This document shows, one piece after another, positions 5,001 to 17,513 of a stretch of 64,000 nt of DNA. The first letter of the stretch is position 1. The number at the start of each line of letters is the position of its first letter. The DNA is from Planctomycetota bacterium (GTDB taxonomy: Bacteria > Planctomycetota > UBA8108 > SXIK01): NCBI GenBank assembly GCA_965223845.1, contig CBDCXR010000004.1, forward strand, positions 1,792,001-1,856,000, given 5' to 3'. The translations under genes were made by a program, and so were the position numbers. The notes under the pieces were generated by a model that had not been told where the DNA came from, made no database searches, and saw only the letters and a program-made list of their open reading frames with translations.

Positions 5001-5523
5001 CACCGATGTCCCGAACGGACCCGCGCCCGTCGACCTTTCCGGCGCGCTCGAGTCGGCGCTCGCGGATTACGGGTTCGACGTTCGGACGACGGGGGAAGTC
5101 CTCGCGGCGTTCAAGCGCGTCGAGAACACGTACCTCTCAACGTTTCAGATCCTCGGCGGACTCGGACTCCTCCTCGGGACGCTCGGCCTCGCCGTCGTTC
5201 TCGTCCGCAACGTCAACGAGAGACGCGCGGAGATCGGGCTGCTGAGGGCGGTCGGGTATACGCCGGCCGCGGTGCGGTGGGTCGTTTTCAGCGAGACCGG
5301 CACGCTTCTGGCCGGTGGCCTCGTTGTCGGTGGCGGTGCCGCGCTGCTCGCGTCCGTGCCCGTTTTCTTGAGCGGCGCCGGCGAGGTATCGGTCTCCGGC
5401 GTGCTCGGGACGGTTGCGGTGATCGCCGCCGCCGGGCTCGGCGCCGCGGCTCTGTCCATGCAGCGCGCGCTCGCGAGCTCATCCCCGGTGGACGCCCTCC
5501 GGGGCGAGAGCCGTCCCCGCTAG
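2029..5523 (+). CDS. Large FtsX/MacB-type ABC permease (two FtsX-like halves)
   Basis: RELGTLLATGF and ERRAEIGLLRAVGY FtsX motifs, multiple hydrophobic segments, large extracytoplasmic loops. ATGA overlap with the ATPase. Confidence 0.88.
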   Translation: MSSGRAFDLRALALRGLRWHRRSYLASVAMIAVATAVVTGALLVGDSVRGSLRDRALERFGAVDFALSSRTGFFREELLRDESSQARSPDRGDEDGARDESSIRATSVILLRGSAVHAESRQRSARVHIIGVDSTFWSFWEETESLAEPFRGEEGRRWCWVNPALAAAIGSEATDTLLLSLGKAESVASEHLLGARDDAVRTLRVACRRVIPAAGPAYFRLDQGQDDPHVVYVPLSFLQRTLEREGEANVALIAAGGPQDEASSALRARIRERLQVGDLGLAVRSVAARGDPASPESARSELVLESRELVLPDAVVESAEQTARALGATTRRVLTYLANTVRVGEREIPYSTITAVEDGGSAERLFAEAVSGPLAGESIVLNDWAARELDAKVGESVTLRYFVVVAGNELREAEATFQLAGIVPIDEGPFDASWTPTFPGISDSASLRDWDPPFPVDFDRIEDRDEEYWDEYRATPKGAIALAEGIELWATRFGRATSVRVDPAETGLSAETFASALLDRLDPGAAGLSLDAVKARALTAARGATDFAMLFVAFSFFLIVSALVLLSLVFRLAAELRARELGTLLATGFTARDATTLLLREGRGLVVIGAIVGAVGGVGYAAALVAGLRTLWSGAVSAPFLELHVTAGSIAIGLSVTAILAFAVIIVVARRITRTAPRALLAGVTRDDPVLRRTSTRSRGFVVVAGGVACAVLTLVGTLDAWAPEACFFGAGAAGLVAGLAALDVALRKLAPQGFAGRGVRALIVLGVRNAGRRPARSLLTASVLAVAAFIVIAVAAQRRDVRHDDPQRDSGDGGYSLVARSAVPLTRSLGSRDGREALNLVGAADALVGAAEIHALRVKPGDDSSCLNLYRPQSPRIVGVESSFRAAGGFRWAKTLADSAEERANPWLLLERTLPDGAIPAIADLNTAQWILHVGLGDEIEVLAEDARPVKIRLVGLLAHSIFQSELVIASETFVRAFPRETGWSQFLFRTDVPNGPAPVDLSGALESALADYGFDVRTTGEVLAAFKRVENTYLSTFQILGGLGLLLGTLGLAVVLVRNVNERRAEIGLLRAVGYTPAAVRWVVFSETGTLLAGGLVVGGGAALLASVPVFLSGAGEVSVSGVLGTVAVIAAAGLGAAALSMQRALASSSPVDALRGESRPR

Positions 5524-5638
5524 CCGGAATGAAACCGCACATCCGACGGTGGAGTCTCCGCCGACGGCGTTCGGCGCGGCGGAGGTCACCTGAGAGGCGG
5601 GATCCGCGCGGGCCGAGAGTCGGAAGTCTCTAGGCCGC

Positions 5639-5722
5639 TTACCGCGCGGGGCGGGTGTAGCGGAAGAGATCAGCGAAGGAGTTCAACAATCCGGCGAGAA
5701 GAGATCGCAGTGAACGCATCAT
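5639..5722 (-). CDS. Putative 27-aa amphipathic small peptide MMRSLRSLLAGLLNSFADLFRYTRPAR
   Basis: Hand-translated; below the ORF-track cutoff. SD-like GTGAGGTAGG immediately before ATG. Hydrophobic residues fall at i/i+3/i+4 spacing. Confidence 0.45.
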   Translation of the reverse strand: MMRSLRSLLAGLLNSFADLFRYTRPAR

Positions 5723-6020
5723 GCCTACCTCACTTCTTTTCGCCCCGCCAAACAAAACACTAACCCAGACGCTCGTCCGTTCCCAGCCCAAACCTTAGGG
5801 CTCAGACCGGACCTTACGGCCCGGACCTTTACGGCACCGCGCAGCTCCGTCGAGCGGCTCGAGGCGGACATCCGTCTCGCCTGTGGGCAACGCTCGGCCG
5901 GACGCGGCGACGGCGGCACTCTTCGAACGGGATGCTCCGGATGGCCGGCGCCTCGAACCCTCTCGCCGTCCTCTGAGACCCGTGAGGACGACCCGAGCCG
6001 CTACCGTTACCGGAACTACG
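5723..6020 (-). ncRNA. Putative structured leader or sRNA
   Basis: Minus-strand hairpins CCGGGCC-GTAA-GGTCCGG (GNRA loop) and GTCGTCCTC-N10-GAGGACGGC, whose G-U pairs favour the minus strand. Not recognised as a known RNA family. Confidence 0.35.
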
Positions 6021-6025
6021 TTCAC

Positions 6026-6054
6026 TTGTTAAGTGTTTCACGCCCGGATGTCAA
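6026..6054 (-). promoter_or_regulatory. Putative sigma70 promoter TTGACA-N17-TAACAA
   Basis: Perfect -35 at 6049-6054. Imperfect -10 overlapped by the CACTT-N3-AAGTG inverted repeat. Confidence 0.4.
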
Positions 6055-6058
6055 CCGT

Positions 6059-7873
6059 TCACCGGCTCGCCAGGCGGCCTAGCGCGCGCCGGAGGGCCGC
6101 TGCCGCGTAGACCGGAGGATAGAGGCGCTCGAAGTACCAGAGGTCGGCGAAGTAGAAGCCGATCGGGGTCGGATCCTCGAGTCCGCCCGCCTCGACCGTG
6201 CCCACGAGCCACTCGAGCCCCCGCTGGACGGCATCCTCGCCCGAGAGATCGCCGTCCGTTTCCGCCCCGAGCAACGCGTAGAGCGCGAGCGCCGACTCCT
6301 CGACGCTCGACGGCGCCCCGTGGTCGCCACCCCAGCCGCCGTCCTCGTTCTGCGCGTCGACGAGCCAACGCTGCGCGTTTCGCCGCACGGACTCCCCGAT
6401 CGGAACCTCCGCGTCCTCGAGGGCGATGAGGACCCGACTCGTCCCGTAGACGGGGCTCTCGTTCTGGGGGACGTGTTCGTTCCCGAACCAGAGCGGAAGC
6501 CACGCGCCGTCGGCCCGTTGCGTGCGCTCGAGGAATGCTCCCATCGCGCGAGTCGCCCGGTCGAGCCTCGGGGCGAGATCCGGAAACGTCCCGCGCCACG
6601 CGGAGAACGCTCGCAGGGCGTGAGCGGTCAGGTCCGCGCCGCTCCGATCGAACGGCAGCCGTCCCCAACCGCGGCAAAACGTCGGAATTCCACCGTCGCG
6701 ATTCTGCAGGTCGAGAAGCCAAGAGAGTCCCGCGGCCGAGGCGCGCCGCGACTCGGCATCGCCTTCGCCGAGGCACTTGAGAGCGAGGAGCGCACCCGCT
6801 GTATCGTCCGCGTCGGGAACGCCGCCGGGAAGATCGGTCCAAGCCCATCCCCCCGGCGCCGCCCCGGTGTACGGATGAACGGTTCGGTACTGCTGACTGA
6901 GAAGCCAACGGCGGATCGGTTCTCGGTCAGCGGGAGAGAGCGCGGACGCCCCCGCTTCAGCGAGCGCTCCAACCGCGAGCGTCGTCACCCAGGTCGCGAG
7001 ATCGGTGTCGATCGGCCAGCTTCCGTCCTTCCGTACTGAGTGCTCGAGGAACCGCGTCGCTTCGCGCACGACGGGGTGGCCCGCCGAACCGCTCGCGGCA
7101 AGACTCATCGTAACGAATGCCGTCAACGGCACCGCTTCGAGAAAACCGCCGCTCGCCGGCTGGATCTCGCGCAGAACGTTCAGCGTACGCGCGCGTGCCG
7201 CTGCGCGCGCCACTCGGGTCAAGGGATTCCGCGTGGGGCGATGGTGGTGGTGTACTTGCCCGACGGCGATCAAGGCCGGGAGGGCGTAGCTGACGACGGG
7301 AAGCCCGAGGAAACGAAACCAGCGACGGGGGAGCGCGGCGAGCTCGAACGGGAGAGACTTCACTGACCTCCAAGCATCGCGTCCCTCGCCTAGGCATCCG
7401 GCGAGGGCGCAGTGGGTGAGGATAGGCACGCTGAACGTTCGATCCTCACCGTAGACGGCGAGGATCGCCGCGGCGAGAGCGTCGGGCGAAGTCGAGCCGG
7501 CGCGCGCCGCGATCCAGTCCTCGGCACCCCGAATGGCGGACTCGACCTTCCCCTCTGACCGTGCGACCGCTCGCAGCGTCGCCCAACAGAGCGTCGTCGT
7601 GCTGATGTTGCTCCGGCTCGCCGGCGTGTCGCCCCAGCCGCCGTCCGTGTGAACGTTTTCCGCTAGCCAATGTGCTCCCCGCGCGACGAGCTCGCGGTGC
7701 TCCGGTCCACCGTGCTTCTCCACGAGTGCAAGCGCGAGAGTAGCGGTCGCGGTCGAGAGCGCACTCGTCGAGAGCTCGCCGCGCCAGTGGCCATCGGAAG
7801 TGCGTTCACCGAGCAGTCGCTGCTCGACGAGATCCGCGGCGCGCTTGAGTCTGTTGTCGAAGTCGTCCGTCAT
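6059..7873 (-). CDS. Squalene-hopene cyclase-like class II terpene cyclase
   Basis: GGWAW..PDADDTA (DxDD), QW repeats (LQNRDGGI, TQRADGAW, AQNEDGGWGG), WFGN and PIGFYFADLWY tail. Confidence 0.85.
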   Translation of the reverse strand: MTDDFDNRLKRAADLVEQRLLGERTSDGHWRGELSTSALSTATATLALALVEKHGGPEHRELVARGAHWLAENVHTDGGWGDTPASRSNISTTTLCWATLRAVARSEGKVESAIRGAEDWIAARAGSTSPDALAAAILAVYGEDRTFSVPILTHCALAGCLGEGRDAWRSVKSLPFELAALPRRWFRFLGLPVVSYALPALIAVGQVHHHHRPTRNPLTRVARAAARARTLNVLREIQPASGGFLEAVPLTAFVTMSLAASGSAGHPVVREATRFLEHSVRKDGSWPIDTDLATWVTTLAVGALAEAGASALSPADREPIRRWLLSQQYRTVHPYTGAAPGGWAWTDLPGGVPDADDTAGALLALKCLGEGDAESRRASAAGLSWLLDLQNRDGGIPTFCRGWGRLPFDRSGADLTAHALRAFSAWRGTFPDLAPRLDRATRAMGAFLERTQRADGAWLPLWFGNEHVPQNESPVYGTSRVLIALEDAEVPIGESVRRNAQRWLVDAQNEDGGWGGDHGAPSSVEESALALYALLGAETDGDLSGEDAVQRGLEWLVGTVEAGGLEDPTPIGFYFADLWYFERLYPPVYAAAALRRALGRLASR

Positions 7874-8015
7874 CGCGCGGCGGCGCCGCCCTCCTGTCGT
7901 TCGGCGAGCGACCTACGACAGGACCGCGACGACTCGTCGTAGAGCCTCGGTACGGAGGTGAGCTGCACTCGCCGGTTCGGTGTGCAGGACTCCCCGCGAG
8001 ACCGCGCGTTCGCGT

Positions 8016-8765
8016 TCAACCGCCCGCCCCCCGGATCTTCGTTCCCATCCATCCCGAACGCGTCCGCGTCGCGATCACGAGTCCCGAGCCAACTCCGCTG
8101 AGGCGCGCGACGAGTTCGCCTCCTTCGGACCAGATCGAGCTCCCGCCCGCGGTGTCGAGCGTCGTCGACGGAGCGCCGTGATTCGCGAGAACTACGGCCA
8201 TCGAGTGCTCCCGAGCGTATCCGGAGAGCTTCTCCGAGACCGACTCGAACTCCGCCGGCGAGAAGAGCACGCCCGCGAGGTACAGCGTCGCGCCGCGCGC
8301 CGCGGCACTCCGGGGATGGGACGCGTGATTCGTGTCGGCGCAGATCGCGACCGCCGCGACGTCGTGCCCGATTCGAGTGAGCGGGTCACGCTCAGCCGGA
8401 TCGAACACGTCCAGCTCGTCGCCCCCGAGGTGGCGCTTCGTGTAGATCGCCTCCCGGCCATCCGCCCCGACGATGAACGCGCCGATGTGAAGTCCCGACG
8501 CGAGCCGGATCGGCGCGCCGACGACGAGCGTCACGCCGTGCTCGGCGGCCGCGTCACGGAGCGGGGCCAGCCGGTCGTCGCGCTCGGAGAACGCGAGGGC
8601 GTCGGCGAGATCCAATTCGTATCCCGTGAGCGACAATTCGGGAAAGACGAGAAGCTGGACGTCGTGTGCCGCCGCGACCGCGACCAGTCGGATGTGACGA
8701 TCGAGGTTATCGCGAACATCTCCCCGGAGTGACTCGATCTGGGCGGCACCGACGGTCACGCTCAT
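8016..8765 (-). CDS. Carbon-nitrogen hydrolase (nitrilase superfamily)
   Basis: Triad motifs VFPELSLTGY (E), YTKRHL (K), AICAD (C). Start moved to ATG at 8765. Confidence 0.88.
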   Translation of the reverse strand: MSVTVGAAQIESLRGDVRDNLDRHIRLVAVAAAHDVQLLVFPELSLTGYELDLADALAFSERDDRLAPLRDAAAEHGVTLVVGAPIRLASGLHIGAFIVGADGREAIYTKRHLGGDELDVFDPAERDPLTRIGHDVAAVAICADTNHASHPRSAAARGATLYLAGVLFSPAEFESVSEKLSGYAREHSMAVVLANHGAPSTTLDTAGGSSIWSEGGELVARLSGVGSGLVIATRTRSGWMGTKIRGAGG

Positions 8766-8802
8766 CTCGCGCGTCCCTTTGTCCTTTAGCATCCGGCGCC
8801 TG

Positions 8803-9687
8803 TCAGAGACTCAAGTGACCGAGCGCGAGGAGCCCGTAGTACGTGTACTCGCAGTCGAGCGTGTCTTCGGCCCAGTGGCCGTAGAAGCTCCCGCGACTCG
8901 TCCAAAGGGTATCGATGAACTCGAGGCAATCGTCGCGAATCGAGTCGAGAGGACACTCGAGCGCAGCGAGCGCGTGGAGCGCCGTCGCCGTCGACAAGAG
9001 GTCGGGCACCGGCGTGCGCGGCCCGGCGCAGAATCCGCCGGCGCGACGGCAGCTACGGACGAGCCACTCGCCCGCCGAGGCGGGACAATCGATCCCGAGA
9101 GTCCGCGCGACGGTCACCGCGGCCGCCGTCGCGGGCGTCGCGCCCTCGGCGACGCGGGCGTCGTTCGCATAGCCTCCGTCGCTCTGCCGGCGTGCCGACA
9201 GAAACTCAGCGATCCGGGACGACGGGATTTCGCTCCCGAGGTCCTGGAGCGCACCGACGGCGAGAAAGACTCCGTAGACGTTCCCCATGTCCGCTCCGCG
9301 TTCGGTCGCGTAACCGCCGTCTGGGGTTCGGTGTCGGTCGATCTCGGCCTCGAAAGCGGCGCGGGCCGCGGTCGAAACCTCGAGCCCGCGGCTCGCCGTC
9401 GCTCGCACCGCAGAGGACAGATGGACGAGATCGAGGCTCGCGATCGTCTCCGGATCGGTGAAGGAGCACAGATACTCTCGCGTATCCGGAGGAAACTCCG
9501 TTCTCAGCGCGAGAAGGCATTCCGTGCCGAACAGCGTGTAATAGAGATCGGCCGCGCCGTCGCGATCACGAAACCCACCGTTCGGTGCGAGCTGGTCGAG
9601 AACGAACGCAGCGACGAGCTCCGTCGACTCACGCAGAAGCTGCGGCGCCAGTCTCGCGACCTGCAGCATTTCGAGTCTCATGCTCAC
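8803..9687 (-). CDS. Prenyltransferase/squalene-oxidase repeat protein (GGTase-beta-like alpha barrel)
   Basis: Repeats QLAPNGGF, TPDGGY, QSDGGY, AGGF; DLYYTLF and DCEYTYYGL motifs. Confidence 0.75.
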   Translation of the reverse strand: MSMRLEMLQVARLAPQLLRESTELVAAFVLDQLAPNGGFRDRDGAADLYYTLFGTECLLALRTEFPPDTREYLCSFTDPETIASLDLVHLSSAVRATASRGLEVSTAARAAFEAEIDRHRTPDGGYATERGADMGNVYGVFLAVGALQDLGSEIPSSRIAEFLSARRQSDGGYANDARVAEGATPATAAAVTVARTLGIDCPASAGEWLVRSCRRAGGFCAGPRTPVPDLLSTATALHALAALECPLDSIRDDCLEFIDTLWTSRGSFYGHWAEDTLDCEYTYYGLLALGHLSL

Positions 9688-11353
9688 GGCACCAGCCCTT
9701 GATCTCGGCGTCGCCGAACATCTTGCCGATGACGCGCCGGAGGAGACCCTTCACGCTCGCGTTGCCGAGCGGCCAGAGAGACCGTATCGCCTCTTCCTTG
9801 TAGGCGTCGAAGAGCTCGCGGCAGCGAGCGACCGCGCCGAGCTCTTCCATGCGGCGCCGCACGGTGTCGGCGGGAACGGCCGCCTCGCGTCGCCAGAGTG
9901 CGTCGAAGAGCTCCCGATCGACTCCCTTCGCCTTTTCCCGCGCCACCGCGAGCGGAAGCGTCGGACGCAGAGCTTCGAGGTCGCCGGCCTCCGCCGTTTC
10001 GGCGAGATCGTCGAGGTCGTCGCGAATCTGGTACGCGATGCCGAGGGAGCGACTGAAATCCGTCACCACCTTCGCCGTCGCGTCGTCGCCGCCGCCGTAG
10101 AGAAGTCCGATCTGGAGCGCGACCTCGAATGCGGGCGCCGTCTTCTCGCGAAAGATGTTCACCACATCGATCGGCGCGAGTGGAGCGGGCCGGCGGGCCC
10201 AGCAGAGTTCTGCACCCTGGCCGCGGCAGAGCGTCCGGTGTCCTTCGGCCGCGACGCGAAGCATCGCGGCGCGCGTTTCAGGCGCCGCCTCGCACTCCGC
10301 GAGGATTCGGTACCCTTCGCCGATCAGAAGGTCGCCGACGTTGAGCGCGACCGGGACGCCGAGCTCGGCGTGGAGAGTCTCTTCGCCGTAGCGCACCGCA
10401 TCGTCGTCCTCGATGTCGTCGTGGACGAGCGATGCCTTGTGGAAACACTCGACGGCGATCGCGACGCGACGAAGATCGTCCGCGAGCTCCGCGTCGGGTT
10501 CCGCAGCGAGCGCCTGCTGCATCGCCACCGTCAGAATCGGACGCCAGCGCTTTCCGCTCCGTGCGAGCCAGGCGCGCGCGATCTCCTCCGTCTCCCCGGT
10601 CGGCTTGCCGAGAAGACGATCGAGCGACTCGCGCGTAAACCACTCGCGCACCTCGTCGCGGAGCGCGGCGAGGTCGAGGCGGCGCGTGCGATCGTCAGCC
10701 GTGAGCTGGATGACGTCCCAAATCCACTCCAGGTCGACGTTCGTATCCACGCAGTCGTCCTGCAGAAGCGGAATCGCCACGCCCGGGATCGCGGCCGCCT
10801 CCATGTACGGAAACGCGCGCTCGAGCACGCTGAGACAGCTCACCCCGACGATCGCATCGATCTTGCCGGTCTCGATGATCGACATCACGATGGGCGATCC
10901 CTCGGCGACCAGAACGGCGTAGCCGAGCCGCTCTGCCTCGGACTGGAGATCCTGAATCGAGCACATGCCGCACTTCTTGCAGAGGAGCCCGAACTCGTCG
11001 AAGGGCGCCGGACAGTGGGACTCGAGTCGGAGGCACTTCGGGAGGAGGAGAAGACGGCGCTCGAACGGAATCGTCGCGAGAGTCTCTCGCCAGAGCTCGT
11101 TGTTGAGAAGCACGCCGGTGAAGTCGACGAAGTTCTGGTCGATGCCAGTCTTCTTCAGAAGCTCGAGCGTCCTCTCACGCAGGGCGTCGATCGGAACCGG
11201 CGGAACGAGATCGTTCTCGGCGACGTAGCCGCGGACGAGTTCGCGCAGTCGCTCGCGCTCGGCGGCGGTCGCGGGGATGTTGCTCTGCGTGGGCCGACTC
11301 GGAATCTCGGCCGGCAGAGTCGGCAGCAGCTTGAGCGGAGGGGGGCTCGACAC
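9629..11353 (-). CDS. Polyprenyl diphosphate synthase with N-terminal Cys-rich DUF116-like domain
   Basis: GKRWRP, HKASLVHDDIED (FARM), KTA, YQIRDDLDD (SARM). N-terminal LPKCLR..CPA..CKKCGMCSI..GVSC. Confidence 0.85.
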   Translation of the reverse strand: MSSPPPLKLLPTLPAEIPSRPTQSNIPATAAERERLRELVRGYVAENDLVPPVPIDALRERTLELLKKTGIDQNFVDFTGVLLNNELWRETLATIPFERRLLLLPKCLRLESHCPAPFDEFGLLCKKCGMCSIQDLQSEAERLGYAVLVAEGSPIVMSIIETGKIDAIVGVSCLSVLERAFPYMEAAAIPGVAIPLLQDDCVDTNVDLEWIWDVIQLTADDRTRRLDLAALRDEVREWFTRESLDRLLGKPTGETEEIARAWLARSGKRWRPILTVAMQQALAAEPDAELADDLRRVAIAVECFHKASLVHDDIEDDDAVRYGEETLHAELGVPVALNVGDLLIGEGYRILAECEAAPETRAAMLRVAAEGHRTLCRGQGAELCWARRPAPLAPIDVVNIFREKTAPAFEVALQIGLLYGGGDDATAKVVTDFSRSLGIAYQIRDDLDDLAETAEAGDLEALRPTLPLAVAREKAKGVDRELFDALWRREAAVPADTVRRRMEELGAVARCRELFDAYKEEAIRSLWPLGNASVKGLLRRVIGKMFGDAEIKGWCREHETRNAAGRETGAAASA

Positions 11354-11383
11354 GGTGTTCAGTCTCCCGGTGCTTCTCTCTCG

Positions 11384-12271
11384 TCAAGAGGACTCGCCCG
11401 AAGGCGCGTCCGCGCTCCCAGTGTTCGGCCCTCGAGCTCCCGCCTCAGCGGCTCGGGCGCGAATCTCGTCCATCGACGGAAGCGACATCAGCACTTCCTC
11501 GGGGATGTCGAGATCGGACTGCAGCTTCTTCAGGCAGCGCATTCGCTCCTTGAGAGCCTTGCTCTCATCGCGCTCTTTCGAGAATCGCGACTCCGCCCGT
11601 CGATGGCGCTCCCGGAGAGCGCTGTAGATATCGCCGCCGAGTAGGGCGGAGATGTCGACCTTCATTTTCTCGCGCTCGACGTCCTCGTCACTCACGTTCG
11701 CGCCGTTGATGGGGCCGGCGCCGTATTTCGGGAAGAGGATGGCGACTTCCGGGCAAACCCGCGAGCAGGCCGGGCAGTTCGTCTTACACTTGTCCGGGTT
11801 CTTCACTTCGATCTGCGAATCCGCGTCGACCCCGTAGACGTCGAACAGGCAGAAGCTGAGGCACTGCATGCAGTTCGTGCAGCGCTCGAAGTCGATAACG
11901 GGAAACCACGGCTTCCACGCGCCCGGCTCGGGCGCACCGGCGTCTCGCGCCACGGATTCGACGAGCTCCGCCACGGCCGTCGGCTCGACCGAAGCGATGT
12001 CGTGCACTCCGTTGTGTTCGGCGGAGGATTCCGGCTTCTCGTCACGACCGTCGCGAAGAACGATCGTATCGGCCGGGAGAGCCTCGTTCCCTCCGCCCGC
12101 GAACGACGAGGCATCGCTGCCGGCGTACCGCACGGCGAAGCCCTTCTCGAGCACGGCCTTCAAGACGTCGCGCCGGCGCTCGACGGCCGCGTCCGAGTCG
12201 GCGACGGGGCCGCGCAAGAGCACGGGAACTCTCGCCCGCGAGGGGGCTGGGGTCGCTGCTTGGGGCGGCAC
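11384..12271 (-). CDS. 2[4Fe-4S] ferredoxin-domain protein
   Basis: CTNCMQCLSFC and CKTNCPACSRVCP cluster motifs. Confidence 0.85.
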   Translation of the reverse strand: MPPQAATPAPSRARVPVLLRGPVADSDAAVERRRDVLKAVLEKGFAVRYAGSDASSFAGGGNEALPADTIVLRDGRDEKPESSAEHNGVHDIASVEPTAVAELVESVARDAGAPEPGAWKPWFPVIDFERCTNCMQCLSFCLFDVYGVDADSQIEVKNPDKCKTNCPACSRVCPEVAILFPKYGAGPINGANVSDEDVEREKMKVDISALLGGDIYSALRERHRRAESRFSKERDESKALKERMRCLKKLQSDLDIPEEVLMSLPSMDEIRARAAEAGARGPNTGSADAPSGESS

Positions 12272-12349
12272 TGGGCTTCCTCCGACTCGGTCGGCTCCGC
12301 GGTTAGTGTTCCCGACCGAGCCGCGTCGCTCGGTCGCGCCGTCGTCGAT

Positions 12350-12721
12350 TCAGGTCTCCGCACTCGCGGGTCGCGCGGAAGGCTCGCGAAGAAGCGTCTC
12401 GACGATCGTCTTCGGATCCTCTTCGCGCATGTTGCAGATCTCGACCGGAGGTGCAGACTCCCCCTCAGCCAGCGGCGCTCCCGCCGCCTTGAAGAGCCAC
12501 TTCACCGACCGGGGAAAACAGGCCGCGATGCGAACCTCGGCGTTCGGTTCCGCCAATCGCGCGAGAGACGGGTCGCGCCGAGCCGAGAGTTCACACAGGT
12601 CGGCGACCGCCTCGAACGGTTCGCCCGAGCGGGCGAGCTCCGCGAGAACCGCATCCTTTACGCCAGGCGAGATGATCTTCGCGTAGGCGCAATGGCAGTA
12701 GAGGATCCGAGTCGGTGCCAT
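12350..12721 (-). CDS. Small Cys-motif protein (possible Fe-S partner of the ferredoxin gene)
   Basis: YCHC, DLC and ACFPR motifs. Start placed at ATG 12721, downstream of the predicted promoter. Confidence 0.65.
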   Translation of the reverse strand: MAPTRILYCHCAYAKIISPGVKDAVLAELARSGEPFEAVADLCELSARRDPSLARLAEPNAEVRIAACFPRSVKWLFKAAGAPLAEGESAPPVEICNMREEDPKTIVETLLREPSARPASAET

Positions 12722-12779
12722 GAGAAGTACCACGAGATAAACCCCGGTCGAGGAGACGACTCTCGGGCCGAATCCCGAC

Positions 12780-12808
12780 ATGCTATCAGGATCGGCGGAG
12801 GATGTCAG
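12780..12808 (-). promoter_or_regulatory. Putative sigma70 promoter CTGACA-N17-TAGCAT with extended -10 TG
   Basis: Read directly in the 200-bp gap between the CobW gene and the Cys-protein gene. Confidence 0.5.
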
Positions 12809-12931
12809 CTCCCGTGCCAGGGAAGCCAAGACGGGATAGGGAGTTACGTCGATTGCGCGGAGCTCGGAGCGCGCTCGGCGGCGGCCGGGCGCACGAGTCC
12901 CGAGATTCTCCTCGGGGCTTCGCTCCTCCCG

Positions 12932-14029
12932 TCATTCCTCCATGCGGTGCGTCGGCTGGGGCTCGCCCGGACGGAAGCTCTCGAGATCGTCGACCCGGAC
13001 GTCGGGGACCGAGATCTCCTCGAGGACCGACGCGACGGCTTCGCGGAGGACCGCGGGATCGGCCTCGGCGCGCAGATTGATGATCAGCTCGCCCGAACGA
13101 ATCGGGGTAGAGAGGCGCATTCCCGTCTCGGGGACGAATTCATTGCCGACGAGCTGACTCACCGCGAGCTCGCCGAGCACGGTACCGCTCGAGAGCGTGA
13201 GTTTCAGGTGCGCGATGTCGCGGACGTCACCCCGCAGGCGCTCCTGCAGCGACGCCATGATCCCGTCGACGAACGCGTTGCCGTCGAACTCTTCGGCGTG
13301 GCTCACGGTCGCGGTCGCGTTCAGCCACCCGAGGAGAGCCTCGCCCTCGCCGTAGATCGCGTAGTCGAGGTCCATCGCTTTCCCGCCCGGGAGATCCTCC
13401 GCGAGGATCCGATCGAGCCACGCGTCGAGGCCCTCGCCGCTCCGCGCCGAGACCTGAATCACGTCCGCACGCGCAAAGCGTTCCGCGAGAGCGCTCTCGA
13501 GCGCACGTCTCTCGTCCGGCGAGAGCAGATCGATCTTGTTGATCGCGATGAGGTGCGCCTCCTCGAGCTGCTTCTCGTAGATGTAGACGACTTTGCGCGA
13601 GAATTGCCGTCCGGATTCGAGCCCGAGTACCCGCATCGCTCGGCGCGGATCGACGAGCACGGTGAGCGGGGCGATCCGATAGCGCTCACCGTACATTCGC
13701 CGTAGCGGGTAACTGACCGAGGCGACGAGATCGGTGCAACTACCGACCGGCTCAGCGAGGAATACGTCGGGGCGATTCGCCGCGCTGAGATTGTCCGCCG
13801 CCGCGAGGAGGGAGCTGAACCGGCAGCAGAAACAACCGCCCGCGATCTCTTCAACGGCGTAGCCGCGCGCGCGGAGGAACCGCGTATCGACGAGGCCCTC
13901 TCCCTGATCGTTCGTGATCAATCCCACGGAGAGTCCCCGGGCGACGATCCGCTTCGCGAGCTCGGCGAGGGCCGTCGATTTACCCGCGCCGAGGAAGCCG
14001 CCGACCATGATGTAGTGTGCTCGATCCAA
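12932..14029 (-). CDS. CobW/COG0523-like G3E metallochaperone GTPase
   Basis: GGFLGAGKST, GGCFCC metal motif, EPVGSC, NKID. Confidence 0.85.
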   Translation of the reverse strand: MDRAHYIMVGGFLGAGKSTALAELAKRIVARGLSVGLITNDQGEGLVDTRFLRARGYAVEEIAGGCFCCRFSSLLAAADNLSAANRPDVFLAEPVGSCTDLVASVSYPLRRMYGERYRIAPLTVLVDPRRAMRVLGLESGRQFSRKVVYIYEKQLEEAHLIAINKIDLLSPDERRALESALAERFARADVIQVSARSGEGLDAWLDRILAEDLPGGKAMDLDYAIYGEGEALLGWLNATATVSHAEEFDGNAFVDGIMASLQERLRGDVRDIAHLKLTLSSGTVLGELAVSQLVGNEFVPETGMRLSTPIRSGELIINLRAEADPAVLREAVASVLEEISVPDVRVDDLESFRPGEPQPTHRMEE

Positions 14030-14059
14030 GGGATCCTCGAGTTTTCTCGTATCGGTGGG

Positions 14060-14566
14060 TCAGCAGTCGGCGCCACCCGCGCCGAGGTCCACTCCGCTCC
14101 GCCAGGGTTGCTCGAGCATCTTGTCGATCGTCGCGTGGAGCTGCGCGACGTATCCCTCGACGTCGACGGCCTTCGGATCGGGCGTCCCGCGGAGCGCGAA
14201 CAGCCAACCGTCGCCGTACGGATCCTTGCAGATCAGCTCGGGGTCCTCGCGGACGGCGGGATTCACGCCAGCGAATTCACCGCCCGCCACAGAATAGATA
14301 TCCGAGACCGCCTTAAACCCTTCGATCCAGCCGAGGGCCTGCGCGACCTCGACTTTTTGCCCCTCGTCGACTTCAAACTCGAACTCCACGATTTCGCCGA
14401 GCATTCGAGTTGCGAACCCGGTGAGTCCGACTCGCCACGTGGATGCGTCCTTCTCGTCGGGGCACGTGAGCCAGTAGTGCGAGAGCGTGTAGACGTACTC
14501 GCGGGGCAGTCGAGTCGAGAAGTGGTTTCGCTTGAAGCGAATCGGGCCGTCGTCCGGGGCGGTCAT
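14060..14566 (-). CDS. Glycine cleavage H-like (lipoyl-carrier fold) protein
   Basis: YTLSHYW, RVGLTGFA..LGEIV, IEGFKAVSDIYS (Lys retained), DPYGDGW. Start trimmed to ATG 14566. Confidence 0.8.
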   Translation of the reverse strand: MTAPDDGPIRFKRNHFSTRLPREYVYTLSHYWLTCPDEKDASTWRVGLTGFATRMLGEIVEFEFEVDEGQKVEVAQALGWIEGFKAVSDIYSVAGGEFAGVNPAVREDPELICKDPYGDGWLFALRGTPDPKAVDVEGYVAQLHATIDKMLEQPWRSGVDLGAGGADC

Positions 14567-14580
14567 CGGTGTGACTTTTC

Positions 14581-15786
14581 TCAGCGCTCGCCGGTTGGAA
14601 GGCAGTGATCGGCGCGCGGGGCCGATCGGGGTCGAGCGCGCAGCTCGGTCACGGCCGCGATCACCGAGTCGGCGGCTCGCTCGATCTCGTCGGGCGTCGT
14701 CGTTCGTCCGAGACCGAATCGCAGCGACCCCTCCGCGGCCGCGCTCGAGCCGTAGAGCATCTGGAGGACGTAGGAGCCGGTTTGCTTCGCCGACGAACAC
14801 GCGGCGCCGGACGAGACCGCGACGCTGGGGATGGCGCGGAGGAGGTCCTCGCTGTGAACGCCGAATCCGACGCTCAGATTGTTCGGGAGACGATCCGTCA
14901 TCGTTCCGTGGAGGGTGACACCCTCGAGCCCCGTGCGCAGACGGTGCCAGAGGCGGTCCCGCAGTTTGGAGATGCGTTCGCTGTCGCGGTCTCGCTCCTC
15001 GGCGACGATCGCGGCCGCGCAGCCGAAGCCCACGATCCCCGGAACGTTGAGTGTTCCCGACCGCAGACCGCGCTCGTGTCCACCCCCGTCGATTTGCGCG
15101 CGCAGTCGCACCCGCGGCCGACGCCGGCGCACATAGAGGGCGCCGACGCCTTTCGGCCCGTACATCTTATGCGCGGAAAGCGAGAGGAGATCGACGCCGA
15201 GCTCGTCGACCCCGAGCGGAAGATGCGCTCCGGCCTGGGCGGCGTCCGAATGAAGGAGCGTGCCGTGCCGACGACAAATCGCCGAGATCTCTCGGAGCGG
15301 ATGCACCGTGCCGATCTCGTTGTTCGCGTACATGAGGGAAACGAGCGCAGTCTCGTCGCGAATCGCATTCTCGAGTCGATCGAGGTCGAGCGTTCCGTCC
15401 GCGTCGACTCCGAGATAGGTCACCTCGAACCCGTCTTCCTCGAGGCGTGCGCAGGTATCGAGAACCGCTTTGTGCTCGGTCCCACAGGTGACCAGGTGTC
15501 GTCCGCGCGCACCGGTCGCGGTCATGACGCCTTTGAGCGCGAGGTTGTTCGATTCCGTCGCGCCCGAGGTGAATACGATCTCGCGGGGATCCGCGGCGAG
15601 CAGATCGGCGACTTCCGCGCGTGCGCGCTCGACGTGGCGAGCCGCGGCCCGTCCGGCCGCGTGCTGTGCGCTCGCGGCGTTTCCGAACGTCTCCGCGAAC
15701 ATCGGGAGCATCGCTTCGACGACGCGGGGATCGCACGGCGTCGTCGCGTGGTGATCGAGATAAATCGGTGAAAATTCAGCGGCCAA
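14581..15786 (-). CDS. iscS: Cysteine desulfurase (IscS/NifS type)
   Basis: YLDHHATTP, FTSGATESNN, SAHKMYGPKG (PLP Lys), SSGAACSS (catalytic Cys). Start uncertain; TTG 15786 chosen. Confidence 0.88.
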   Translation of the reverse strand: MAAEFSPIYLDHHATTPCDPRVVEAMLPMFAETFGNAASAQHAAGRAAARHVERARAEVADLLAADPREIVFTSGATESNNLALKGVMTATGARGRHLVTCGTEHKAVLDTCARLEEDGFEVTYLGVDADGTLDLDRLENAIRDETALVSLMYANNEIGTVHPLREISAICRRHGTLLHSDAAQAGAHLPLGVDELGVDLLSLSAHKMYGPKGVGALYVRRRRPRVRLRAQIDGGGHERGLRSGTLNVPGIVGFGCAAAIVAEERDRDSERISKLRDRLWHRLRTGLEGVTLHGTMTDRLPNNLSVGFGVHSEDLLRAIPSVAVSSGAACSSAKQTGSYVLQMLYGSSAAAEGSLRFGLGRTTTPDEIERAADSVIAAVTELRARPRSAPRADHCLPTGER

Positions 15787-16208
15787 GAGAGGTCCGAACG
15801 GGGACGTGGCGAGGTCGGAGAGCAGTCTCGGTGGTGGTCTACGCGGTGCCGGAGATTCTATCGCGACTCGCACGATCGATCCAAAACCGTCGGCGACGCG
15901 AGCCGCTTGGGCCGCGGCGGCCGCCCGAGCGTTTTCGGTACTTGTCGGGAGCGGTTCCCGACCGACCGCTCGCGACGAGCACCGGCGCGACTCCCGCGCG
16001 GCGGGGCGATTCCCGTCGCATCCTTCGGGCGAGGAGGATCTCAATCTTGCCCGCTCGAGTCCGAGCGCGCCTCGGCGCGCTGTGGGTCGAAATCCTTTCT
16101 TGTCCGGCAGCCGCCCTCTTATGATCACTCTGTCCCGACTTCAAACGCTGAGACAGCCGAGTCGAGTGACGTCGATTTCTCCATCTCTCCGCGACTCTCA
16201 CCAACGCG

Positions 16209-17513
16209 ATGACGACGCCCCTCTCCGAAGAAGATACCGAAGTCGGTAGTTACTTCATCTCGAACTACCCGCCGTTCAGCTTTTGGAAGCCGGAGCACGT
16301 AGATTCCGCCCGGGCGGCCATCGATCGATCGCCCGCGCCGGACGTACCGCTCGGACTCTATCTCCACATCCCGTTTTGCCGAAAACGGTGCAAGTTCTGC
16401 TACTTTCGGGTCTACACCGAAAAGAACAGCCGTGAAGTGGAGCGCTATCTAGCCGCACTCGTTCGCGAGATCGCTCTATACAGCGAGCGGCCCGTCCTCG
16501 AGGGGCGACCGTTTCGATTCGCGTATTTCGGCGGTGGAACGCCGTCGTTCCTCAGCGAGAAGCAGCTCCTCTCCCTGGTCGATCGACTGCGCGCGTCGAT
16601 CGATTGGGACGACGCCGAGGAGGTCACGTTCGAGTGCGAGCCGGGAACGCTCACCGAACGAAAGCTGCGGGCGATCCGCGAGCTGGGAGTGACGCGCCTC
16701 AGTCTCGGCATCGAGAATTTCGACGACGCCATTCTCGAAGAGAACGGACGGGCACACCGCAGTCCGGAAGTGTTTCGCGCGTACGAGTGGGCTCGGGCGA
16801 TCGGATTCCCACAGATCAACGTCGATCTCATCGCCGGGATGGTCGGTGAAACGACAGAGAACTGGCACGAGTGTGTGCGGAAGACGATCGAGCTCGCGCC
16901 CGATTCGGTGACGATCTACCAGCTCGAGCTTCCGTTCAACGCGGTGTACTCGAGCGAGCTCCGAACGGGCGGCGAAGTCTCCGTCGCGACGTGGGGGCGG
17001 AAGCGGGAGTGGGTGGCCTACGCGTTCGACGCGCTGCGCGAAGCCGGCTATTCCGTCTCGAGCGCTTACACCATGGTGAAGGACCCCGACGCCAAGTTCG
17101 TCTATCGCGATGCGCTCTGGCGCGGCGCCGACATGCTCGGGACGGGGGTCGCTTCGTTTTCGCACGTCGCCGGCGTGCATTTTCAGAATCTTGACACCGA
17201 CACGCAGTACCTGGAGTCGCTCGAGAGCGGCGAGCTTCCGATCGGACGCGCGCTTCCCGTCACGGATCGCCAACGCATGATTCGCGAATTGATCCTCCAG
17301 CTCAAGCTCGGCTCGGTGGACCCGGCGTACTTTGAGCGCAAATTCGGGTTAAGGATCACGCGAGAGTTCGGTTCGGTCTGGGACGACCTTCGTGACCACG
17401 GGTATCTCGAGTCCGGCGACCCGCCCACTTTGACGCGAGACGGGCTTTTGCGCGTCGACGCGTTCCTCCCGCGATTCTTCGAGCCGGAGCACCAAGGCGC
17501 TCGGTATACGTAA
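16209..17513 (+). CDS. HemN-like radical SAM protein
   Basis: YLHIPFCRKRCKFC (CxxxCxxC), YFGGGTPS, N-terminal SNYPPF. Confidence 0.9.
   Translation: MTTPLSEEDTEVGSYFISNYPPFSFWKPEHVDSARAAIDRSPAPDVPLGLYLHIPFCRKRCKFCYFRVYTEKNSREVERYLAALVREIALYSERPVLEGRPFRFAYFGGGTPSFLSEKQLLSLVDRLRASIDWDDAEEVTFECEPGTLTERKLRAIRELGVTRLSLGIENFDDAILEENGRAHRSPEVFRAYEWARAIGFPQINVDLIAGMVGETTENWHECVRKTIELAPDSVTIYQLELPFNAVYSSELRTGGEVSVATWGRKREWVAYAFDALREAGYSVSSAYTMVKDPDAKFVYRDALWRGADMLGTGVASFSHVAGVHFQNLDTDTQYLESLESGELPIGRALPVTDRQRMIRELILQLKLGSVDPAYFERKFGLRITREFGSVWDDLRDHGYLESGDPPTLTRDGLLRVDAFLPRFFEPEHQGARYT

Follow-up and report, generated by a model that had tools for sequence, protein, structure and literature searches.

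A DUF116–polyprenyl diphosphate synthase fusion in a planctomycete cyclase gene cluster, with a candidate iron-sulfur redox module

We analyzed a 64,000-nucleotide stretch of DNA from a Planctomycetota bacterium (contig CBDCXR010000004.1 of GenBank assembly GCA_965223845.1, positions 1,792,001 to 1,856,000 of the forward strand), here called the window. On its minus strand it carries a gene in which a DUF116 domain is fused to a trans-polyprenyl diphosphate synthase (9629..11353, GTG start, 574 aa). We propose that the DUF116 domain is an iron-sulfur redox module, which would serve in a step, reductive or radical, that the polyprenyl product undergoes ahead of its cyclization, and we assign this reading a probability of about 0.5. 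The proposal draws on the conserved cysteines of the domain, on ferredoxin-like and radical S-adenosylmethionine (SAM) genes that accompany the fusion, and on a squalene-hopene cyclase (SHC)-like enzyme of the same cluster, which is probably fed by the fusion.

Architecture of the DUF116 fusion protein

The fusion gene was delimited from the open reading frame (ORF) list, two Pfam domains and an AlphaFold2 model. Its N-terminal half matched PF01976 (DUF116) with 128.3 bits against a cut-off of 25, over positions 6–154 of the 155-position profile. The C-terminal half matched PF00348 (polyprenyl_synt) with 144.9 bits against a cut-off of 27, and at E ≤ 0.01 these two were the only Pfam matches of the protein. 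From Pfam and the domain model, DUF116 was placed at residues 65–214 (10712..11161, minus strand). The synthase domain comprises residues 256–491 (9881..10588, minus strand) according to Pfam, conservation, alignment with the solved structures 5jfq and 1wy0, and Foldseek. The AlphaFold2 model of all 574 residues had a mean local confidence (pLDDT) of 92.3 and a predicted template modelling (TM) score (pTM) of 0.89. Confidence was low at the C-terminal tail and the linker contained no low-confidence stretch, we hence conclude that the fusion is predicted to be one rigid two-domain protein.

When 5.8 billion proteins were searched, both domains were present in all 120 best matches listed. One of these is the window's own protein; the remaining 119 share 62–71% identity with it and stem from Planctomycetota, Verrucomicrobiota, Acidobacteriota and other groups. 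Moreover, a scan with one genome per species gave 593 pattern matches, 579 of them encoding a relative, so that at least 579 species carry the fusion; many of the carriers are metagenome-assembled genomes. With DUF116 alone (residues 40–235) as phmmer query against 1.84 billion representatives, we obtained 924 proteins at E ≤ 0.001, each standing for a cluster at 50% identity. The best 150 of these 924 were mostly fusions or fragments of them, with 480–660 aa.

The fusion has been in print since 2015, when Makarova et al. (PMC5898192) noted DUF116 (COG1852, arCOG02078) fused to a polyprenyl synthetase in Pirellula staleyi (Psta_0175) and predicted that DUF116 folds like a flavodoxin and takes part in electron transfer. 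Where that paper treats Psta_0175 it does so in a single sentence, which comes without operon, chain-length analysis or experiment. The Psta_0175 family (‘polyprenyl synthetase family protein’) has the same order with DUF116 at the N-terminus, and the window fusion is one more member of it. Our literature search for a functional study of the DUF116 family found none and turned up only Makarova et al. 2015 and one figure legend.

The most conspicuous feature of the DUF116 domain is its set of seven cysteines. Five of them, C107, C114 (followed by Pro), C125, C128 and C131, lie in a loop after the first β-strand (10961..11035, minus strand; located with an alignment of 58 fusions and DSSP), with the spacing C107-x6-C114-x10-C125-x2-C128-x2-C131; C173 and C201 follow further downstream. 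All seven were invariant in 58/58 aligned fusions, and the same seven were found in 4/4 stand-alone DUF116 proteins that we aligned to the DUF116 domain of the fusion (23–28% identity). Since the set is invariant in fusions and stand-alone members alike, we regard it as a family signature and not as a chance pattern. An earlier reading of the window, made from its letters only (hereafter the sequence-only reading), had described a Cys-rich N-terminal half with the pattern C-x6-C-x10-CxxCxxC and one distal Cys. The pattern proved exact from C107 to C131; a distal Cys exists as well, yet there are two of them. Outside the domain, C303 just ahead of the first Asp-rich motif of the synthase is likewise invariant, and C555 near the C-terminus is present in 54/58 fusions.

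We also modeled residues 40–235 separately (102 sequences; pLDDT 94.5, pTM 0.89). The model has three soluble N-terminal helices followed by a four-stranded parallel α/β core, i.e., DUF116 is predicted to adopt a flavodoxin/Rossmann-like fold. In the DSSP assignment, strand 1 (residues 100–104) runs into the Cys loop (105–131), strand 3 (167–172) into C173 and strand 4 (191–195) leads to C201, so that C107, C173 and C201 come directly after strands 1, 3 and 4. The domain contains a motif of the cluster-binding type, C125-x2-C128-x2-C131 with the remote C114-P115, and this CxxCxxC plus Cys-Pro combination suggests iron-sulfur binding. Taken with the model, we infer that the cysteines would be split into a ferredoxin-like site (C114-Pro/C125/C128/C131) and a three-Cys site (C107/C173/C201). 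The latter is predicted to lie along the C-terminal edge of the β-sheet, and it is at this edge that ligands of Rossmann-type folds are bound. By motif and predicted topology, DUF116 may bind iron-sulfur rather than Zn, and may be a catalyst rather than an electron carrier.

The synthase half appears to be an active trans-polyprenyl diphosphate synthase of the archaeal geranylgeranyl diphosphate (GGPP) synthase type, as judged from its sequence. It has the Asp-rich motifs DDIED (312–316) and DDLDD (445–449), in which D312, D313, D316, D445, D446 and D449 are each at least 90% conserved in 94 sequences. Foldseek with the full-length model found the all-helical isoprenoid synthase fold (5jfq_A, E 1.8e-12, TM score 0.85 on the target), with 1wy0, 6kd7 and 4jyx similar (TM 0.84–0.87 on the target), and all fold matches to solved chains were confined to the synthase half. 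The closest solved relatives by sequence are the archaeal type I GGPP synthases 5jfq (E 8e-28) and 1wy0 (E 1e-27). They share both Asp-rich motifs with the window synthase, without an insertion in the first. Unlike them, the window synthase carries the additional N-terminal Cys-rich module of 250 aa and has Ala307 at position −5 before the first motif, followed by Ser308 at −4, within the conserved stretch ECFHKASL. In the alignments, the residue opposite Ala307 is Phe in 5jfq and Tyr in 1wy0. An aromatic residue at −5 holds archaeal GGPP synthases to C20. Because Ala replaces it here, a product longer than C20 is likely, and the fusion synthase probably makes a head-to-tail chain of more than C20.

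The fusion reached no NCBIfam equivalog cut-off (best 125.6 against 450). Two other PF00348 genes are present in the genome, one of long-chain type, for which heptaprenyl and solanesyl models scored best, and one of the short-chain IdsA type, which has Phe-Phe at −5 and −4. Because the genome thus has separate short-chain-type and long-chain-type synthases, the fusion would be a third, extra and dedicated synthase.

Gene cluster and link to an SHC-like cyclase

Directly upstream of the fusion, the window encodes a ferredoxin-like protein (Fd) of 295 aa (11384..12271, minus strand), assigned with Fer4_2 (27.6 bits, cut-off 24.5), Fer4_10 (27.8 bits, cut-off 25.5) and a 27-sequence alignment. 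The eight cysteines of its motifs C131-x2-C-x2-C-x3-C141 and C162-x3-C-x2-C-x3-C173-P are invariant in 27/27 sequences. This 2×[4Fe-4S] block, at residues 119–190, is preceded by an N-terminal domain and followed by a conserved helical C-terminal part with an invariant C246.

The next gene upstream encodes a small four-Cys protein of 123 aa (CxC; 12350..12721, minus strand), recognized by its CxC, DLC, AC..R and NMR motifs. Its four cysteines are invariant in 28/28 and 21/21 sequences of two alignments. The protein matched no Pfam or NCBIfam family, and Pfam matches were likewise absent from 21 members. CxC appeared unrelated to DUF116 in hhalign and to the Fd N-terminus in BLASTP. An MvhD/FlpD-like [2Fe-2S] identity, which we had considered, found no support, with no Pfam match and a best PDB sequence at E 0.085. 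In 5/29 homologous ORFs, CxC is fused N-terminally to Fd and replaces Fd's own N-terminal domain (L025:5664-6665, L030:2632-3600, L033:1628-2707, L035:2247-3041 and L039:154-1047). Since such CxC::Fd fusions exist, CxC and Fd presumably act as one unit. The sequence-only reading had named these two upstream genes as a 2[4Fe-4S] protein and a CxC/DLC/ACxPR protein, and its Cys motifs were recovered here as invariant across homologs.

Fusion, Fd and CxC all lie on the minus strand with gaps of 30 nt (fusion/Fd) and 78 nt (Fd/CxC); judging from this common strand and the short gaps they would be co-transcribed. A promoter and terminator scan of positions 5500–16500 gave counts not above those of shuffled sequences (1 vs 0.7; 4 vs 5.3). 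We also predicted a complex of the DUF116 domain, Fd and CxC as three chains with their own alignments. The two scores, 0.22 and 0.28, stayed under the mark of 0.32 in this run without controls and speak neither way.

At the other end, the fusion adjoins a gene for a single α/α-toroid protein with prenyltransferase repeats (8803..9681, minus strand; PF00432, 51.7 bits). The toroid start (MRLEML...) overlaps the fusion 3′ end by 53 nt (9629–9681). Among 47 loci in which the toroid gene adjoins the fusion, 19 have an overlap of 41–74 nt and nine more a gap of 2 nt; the conserved overlap points to translational coupling.

The SHC-like class II terpenoid cyclase is encoded at 6059..7873 (minus strand). 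It matched both SHC-type domains, SQHop_cyclase_N with 82 bits and SQHop_cyclase_C with 130.1 bits, and the DxDD acid motif of class II (protonation-dependent) cyclases (here PDADDT) is invariant in 25 sequences. On the hopene cyclase model TIGR01507 it reached 122 bits against a cut-off of 431.1, and is therefore not a canonical hopene cyclase. A canonical one is encoded elsewhere in the genome (C4:6917481-6919448, 681 bits on TIGR01507).

To describe the gene context we ran tblastn with the window proteins on 80 related loci, many of which are cut by contig ends, so that all counts are lower bounds. The cluster order is GcvH-like, CobW-like, CxC, Fd, radical SAM, fusion, toroid protein and SHC-like DxDD cyclase. 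Toroid and Fd genes were found in 51 loci each, CxC in 47, the SHC-like, CobW-like and GcvH-like genes in 34 each, and a NifS-like gene in 28.

Clustering of the locus ORFs revealed that the gene between Fd and the fusion, which is absent from the window cluster, is a radical SAM gene of about 430 aa (type A). The position directly upstream of the fusion is taken by type A in 45/80 loci and by a second radical SAM type (type B) in 2/80 (L025, L030). Three further loci (L012, L014, L076), where it overlaps the fusion start, were scored as misses, and nine loci were too short upstream. The best NCBIfam models for type A were NirJ2 and other SPASM-type models, all far under their cut-offs; on HpnH (TIGR03470) it had 39.9 bits, below the cut-off of 225.05. 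The window's own genome has a type A ortholog of 60% identity about 1.08 Mb from the window (C4:716637-717908; L085:1471-2772, minus strand). Its two neighbors, both on the opposite strand, are a hydrophobic ORF and an ORF that contains a GGDEF motif.

Type B is a radical SAM protein of about 510 aa with its core at about 223–410. It occupies the same slot in loci of three genomes without type A (L115:9048-10583, L116:5929-7596, L117:6827-8353), in addition to L025 and L030. The B12-binding/radical SAM model gave 74 bits against 251, and MiaB-like models were weak too. Type B is a non-orthologous replacement of type A. That 14/52 fusion genomes lack type A had suggested a dispensable radical SAM enzyme; we rejected this idea, as type B fills the slot in three such loci. 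Of the fusion genomes that lack type A, five were checked for Fd; all five have it, and it adjoined the fusion in the three loci that were fetched. The radical SAM enzyme is a core member of the system, which the sequence-only reading had overlooked. We count six genes as the core, i.e., CxC, Fd, radical SAM, fusion, toroid protein and cyclase.

Co-occurrence was analyzed in 201 genomes of the window's phylum. DUF116 matched at E ≤ 1e-10 in 69/201 genomes, 52 with the fused type (E ≤ 1e-26 and long open frames) and 17 with the stand-alone type; SHC-like orthologs were found at E ≤ 1e-90 in 51/201. Fusion and SHC-like cyclase occurred together in 49 genomes, the fusion alone in three, the cyclase alone in two, and neither in 147. 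Type A radical SAM was found at E ≤ 1e-84 in 38 genomes, every one of them with the fusion. The co-occurrence pattern agrees with the synteny. The tie between fusion and cyclase that the sequence-only reading had drawn is borne out in this way, both by gene order in the 80 loci and by the 49 genomes with both among 52 and 51 carriers. For the SHC-like system, the fusion marks out the enzyme dedicated to chain building.

The cyclase belongs to a clade that others have flagged as of unknown function (2020, 2025). Santana-Molina et al. 2020 (PMC7306690) report that planctomycete SHC-like proteins keep the catalytic residues, with a context that suggests non-squalene precursors. A 2025 preprint (PMC12324236) places an ‘unknown function’ clade, whose substrate it calls unknown, as sister to cyclases of head-to-tail epoxy-polyprenyl chains (C25 and C40). 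As described in these sources, the clade keeps DxDD and occurs in Planctomycetes, Verrucomicrobia and Acidobacteria, like the window cyclase. Their passages on the clade treat the cyclase; the DUF116 fusion, the iron-sulfur proteins and radical SAM are not discussed in those passages.

Candidate roles of the DUF116 domain

We envisage the following sequence of events. The synthase domain would build a head-to-tail chain longer than C20. DUF116 would carry two iron-sulfur centers, at the ferredoxin-like four-Cys site and at the three-Cys site, and electrons may reach it from CxC and the 2×[4Fe-4S] protein Fd. It would then either act on the polyprenyl product directly or pass electrons on to the radical SAM enzyme. 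The product may be handed to the translationally coupled toroid protein, and the DxDD SHC-like cyclase would close it into a non-hopanoid cyclic isoprenoid. In favor of a catalytic role at the diphosphate end are the invariable fusion to a synthase, the three-Cys site, the fact that DUF116 also occurs as a stand-alone module, and a cluster without a class I synthase or phosphatase; adjacency favors a relay to radical SAM.

In the methylerythritol phosphate (MEP) pathway, IspH and IspG are [4Fe-4S] enzymes that cleave C–O bonds of isoprenoid diphosphates reductively with electrons from ferredoxin or flavodoxin, and the IspH cluster is ligated by three Cys from α/β domains. Both enzymes set a precedent, in that prenyl diphosphates are reduced by iron-sulfur proteins to which a small electron carrier is dedicated, and DUF116 may work like them. 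We do not claim membership in the IspH family. DUF116 had no LytB sequence match and no specific fold match; LytB was neither in the rows of two DUF116 fold searches nor among the Pfam matches of the fusion, although these rows alone do not exclude it. A bolder version would make DUF116 a family of site-differentiated iron-sulfur reductases that use CxC–ferredoxin electrons for an IspH-type cleavage of the allylic C–O(PP) bond of a C25–C35 diphosphate. The resulting polyprene hydrocarbon would be tailored by radical SAM and then cyclized to ‘regular’ polycyclic terpenoid lipids. We consider this a long shot. If it were true, a regular head-to-tail polyprene hydrocarbon would be formed with no need for O2, NAD(P)H or any class I terpene synthase, and an unknown class of ‘regular’ polycyclic terpenoid lipids, possibly with their fossil hydrocarbons, would follow.

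Several observations weigh against the proposed redox role. Foldseek of the DUF116 model against the PDB gave nothing at E ≤ 0.001 and thus no iron-sulfur relative. In an all-against-representatives fold search the best Z was 7.6, within the range expected for a common arrangement; the matched proteins, among them receiver domains, sugar-binding proteins and designed Rossmann folds, are generic only. The seven cysteines could bind Zn. None of 15 representatives of odd length had DUF116 fused to a ferredoxin or to a radical SAM protein. We furthermore collected 20 stand-alone DUF116 loci from the same phylum, with flanks of up to about 8 kb that are shorter at contig ends. The operon Fd was found in 0/20 and type A radical SAM in 0/20, with one weak type-B-like match. 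The link between DUF116 and Fd is therefore specific to the operon and not family-wide. In the window itself, the radical SAM gene sits outside the cluster. Finally, the co-occurrence counts overstate independence, because the sampled genomes are kin.

Two further search results concern the fold. A PDB profile search with the DUF116 alignment matched the synthase part alone. Several B12-domain chains topped the Foldseek list, but with E 0.02–0.1 and a TM score of about 0.3, and we judged a likeness to cobalamin-binding domains (helical cap plus Rossmann fold) too weak to rely on.

A sub-case of our proposal would make DUF116 a mere relay or docking adapter, which couples CxC–Fd to radical SAM and tethers the synthase for chain hand-over, with no lipid chemistry of its own. 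The ferredoxin electrons could, as an obvious alternative, be used by radical SAM. Its gene immediately precedes the fusion in the 45 type A and two type B loci, two unrelated types occupy the same slot, and all 38 type A genomes carry the fusion. Against this, DUF116 is fused to the synthase and, among the proteins examined, never to radical SAM or Fd. An adapter would moreover need to dock on radical SAM proteins of two dissimilar types, and the stand-alone DUF116 genes lack an operon-type radical SAM gene nearby, apart from the one weak type-B-like match. We regard a pure relay as possible, though doubtful.

Alternatively, DUF116 could be a structural or regulatory Cys/Zn domain, e.g., for oligomerization, for membrane or partner docking, or for thiol/redox sensing that gates the synthase. 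It would then take no part in electron transfer, and Fd and the four-Cys protein would serve radical SAM only. The generic fold matches without a solved iron-sulfur relative would fit such a domain, as would stand-alone genes without this Fd. Radical SAM enzymes need a reductant, and a radical SAM enzyme is encoded in the same operon in 47/80 loci. Conversely, seven cysteines are kept between fused and probably membrane-anchored stand-alone proteins at only 23–28% identity, CxxCxxC and Cys-Pro are typical of cluster ligands, and Fd still adjoins the fusion in the three loci where the radical SAM type is swapped. Methanogen members of the family, moreover, adjoin redox enzymes (PMC5898192). We therefore consider a purely structural or regulatory domain unlikely.

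The weakest alternative is that of the sequence-only reading, in which an iron-sulfur domain couples or reduces prenyl chains to a squalene-like substrate and so supplies the cyclase without HpnCDE. The consistent link of cyclase and fusion, a cluster without a head-to-head synthase gene and the non-squalene precursor expected for the cyclase clade (PMC7306690) would fit, yet the genome keeps its canonical hopene cyclase and two PF00494 genes, Ala at −5 predicts elongation beyond C20 and not coupling of short chains, and the clade is sister to cyclases of head-to-tail C25/C40 chains (PMC12324236), which makes this version very improbable. The PF00494 genes (C4:1555279-1556061 and C4:1989211-1990107), which like the hopene cyclase lie far from the window, scored 270.3 and 192.8 bits, above the cut-off, and one of them is HpnD-like (a match along part of its length with 243 bits; cut-off 278.6). 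Given these two genes and a true hopene cyclase, no substitute for HpnCDE is required, and the claim of a supply without HpnCDE is weakened accordingly. An ordinary squalene/hopanoid route probably exists beside the SHC-like system. Of the fused-domain idea itself, the independent conserved Cys-rich module, its own ferredoxin-type proteins and the cyclase link remain; the coupling of chains is weakened, as Ala at −5 speaks for a longer head-to-tail chain.

The iron-sulfur redox proposal can be compared with known cyclase systems. Like the hpn clusters (squalene-hopene cyclase, HpnH, HpnCDE), the system described here combines a class II cyclase, a radical SAM gene and genes for an isoprenoid precursor. 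In contrast to hpn, its cyclase and radical SAM proteins stay under the SHC and HpnH cut-offs, a polyprenyl synthase stands in place of head-to-head synthases, and Fd, CxC, GcvH-like and CobW-like proteins are added. Dedicated head-to-tail synthases also feed SHC-family cyclases in the Bacillus sporulenol route (heptaprenyl diphosphate synthase, YtpB, SqhC) and with Lon15 (C40) and AtoE (C25), as reported in PMC7306690 and PMC12324236. Unlike these, the window cluster contains no YtpB-type synthase or epoxidase, and it has iron-sulfur and radical SAM proteins instead.

Substrate and product of SHC-like cyclases have been named an open question for the evolution of cyclic terpenoids and for the fossil record (PMC7306690; PMC12324236). 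If DUF116 is a redox enzyme, this would be the first function for a family that is also found in methanogens, and a new type of catalyst for oxygen-independent terpenoid tailoring. To the published fusion and cyclase clade, the following points are apparently new: the Ala-for-aromatic argument, the strand-edge topology of the three cysteines, the 49-of-52 co-occurrence count, the CxC::Fd fusions, the conserved 53-nt toroid overlap, and stand-alone DUF116 genes without the operon Fd and radical SAM. The addition of the window itself is modest, i.e., one more member, with the radical SAM gene missing from its cluster.

Stand-alone DUF116 genes and accessory genes

At the N-terminus, stand-alone DUF116 proteins of the same phylum are hydrophobic, in place of the soluble helices of the fusion. 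Three stand-alone loci (3/20), all of one family, have the order IspH(LytB)::UbiA – DUF116 – ThiD2/ThiE. The IspH::UbiA ORF of 577 aa (L096:7569-9302, minus strand; homologs in L099 and L105) matched LYTB with 295 bits, and its UbiA-like C-terminus had 27.9 bits, under the cut-off. In a Bipolaricaulota terpenoid cluster described in a 2025 preprint (10.1101/2025.11.21.689855), DUF116 is located two genes from IspH. Such IspH neighborhoods are leads toward isoprenoid iron-sulfur chemistry, not proof of it. In addition, tandem pairs of stand-alone DUF116 genes, whose products are probably membrane-anchored, adjoin a gene for an Rce1-like CAAX prenyl protease and priA (L095:7318-8846, L098 and L103); these pairs were found in small planctomycete genomes.

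Upstream of CxC, the window continues on the minus strand with three accessory genes. The first encodes a CobW/COG0523-type GTPase with a CxCC motif (12932..14029; Pfam cobW, 84.3 bits), the second a GcvH-like carrier protein (14060..14569; Pfam GCV_H, 77 bits, with NCBIfam GcvH models below their cut-offs). The third encodes a NifS-type cysteine desulfurase (14581..16128; Pfam Aminotran_5, 256.8 bits), for which the match starts at residue 122; the true start is probably downstream of the first start codon of the ORF. In its 28/80 loci the NifS-type gene is found on either side of the cluster. Divergent from it in the window is a HemN-like radical SAM gene (16209–17513, plus strand; Pfam Radical_SAM, 87.4 bits), with a counterpart in 0/80 loci. 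A carbon-nitrogen hydrolase gene (8016–8792, minus strand; CN_hydrolase, 77.7 bits) lies between the toroid and SHC-like genes and looks like a lineage-specific insertion, because a homolog was found in 0/80 loci. The distant radical SAM gene and this inserted hydrolase gene are peculiar to the window.

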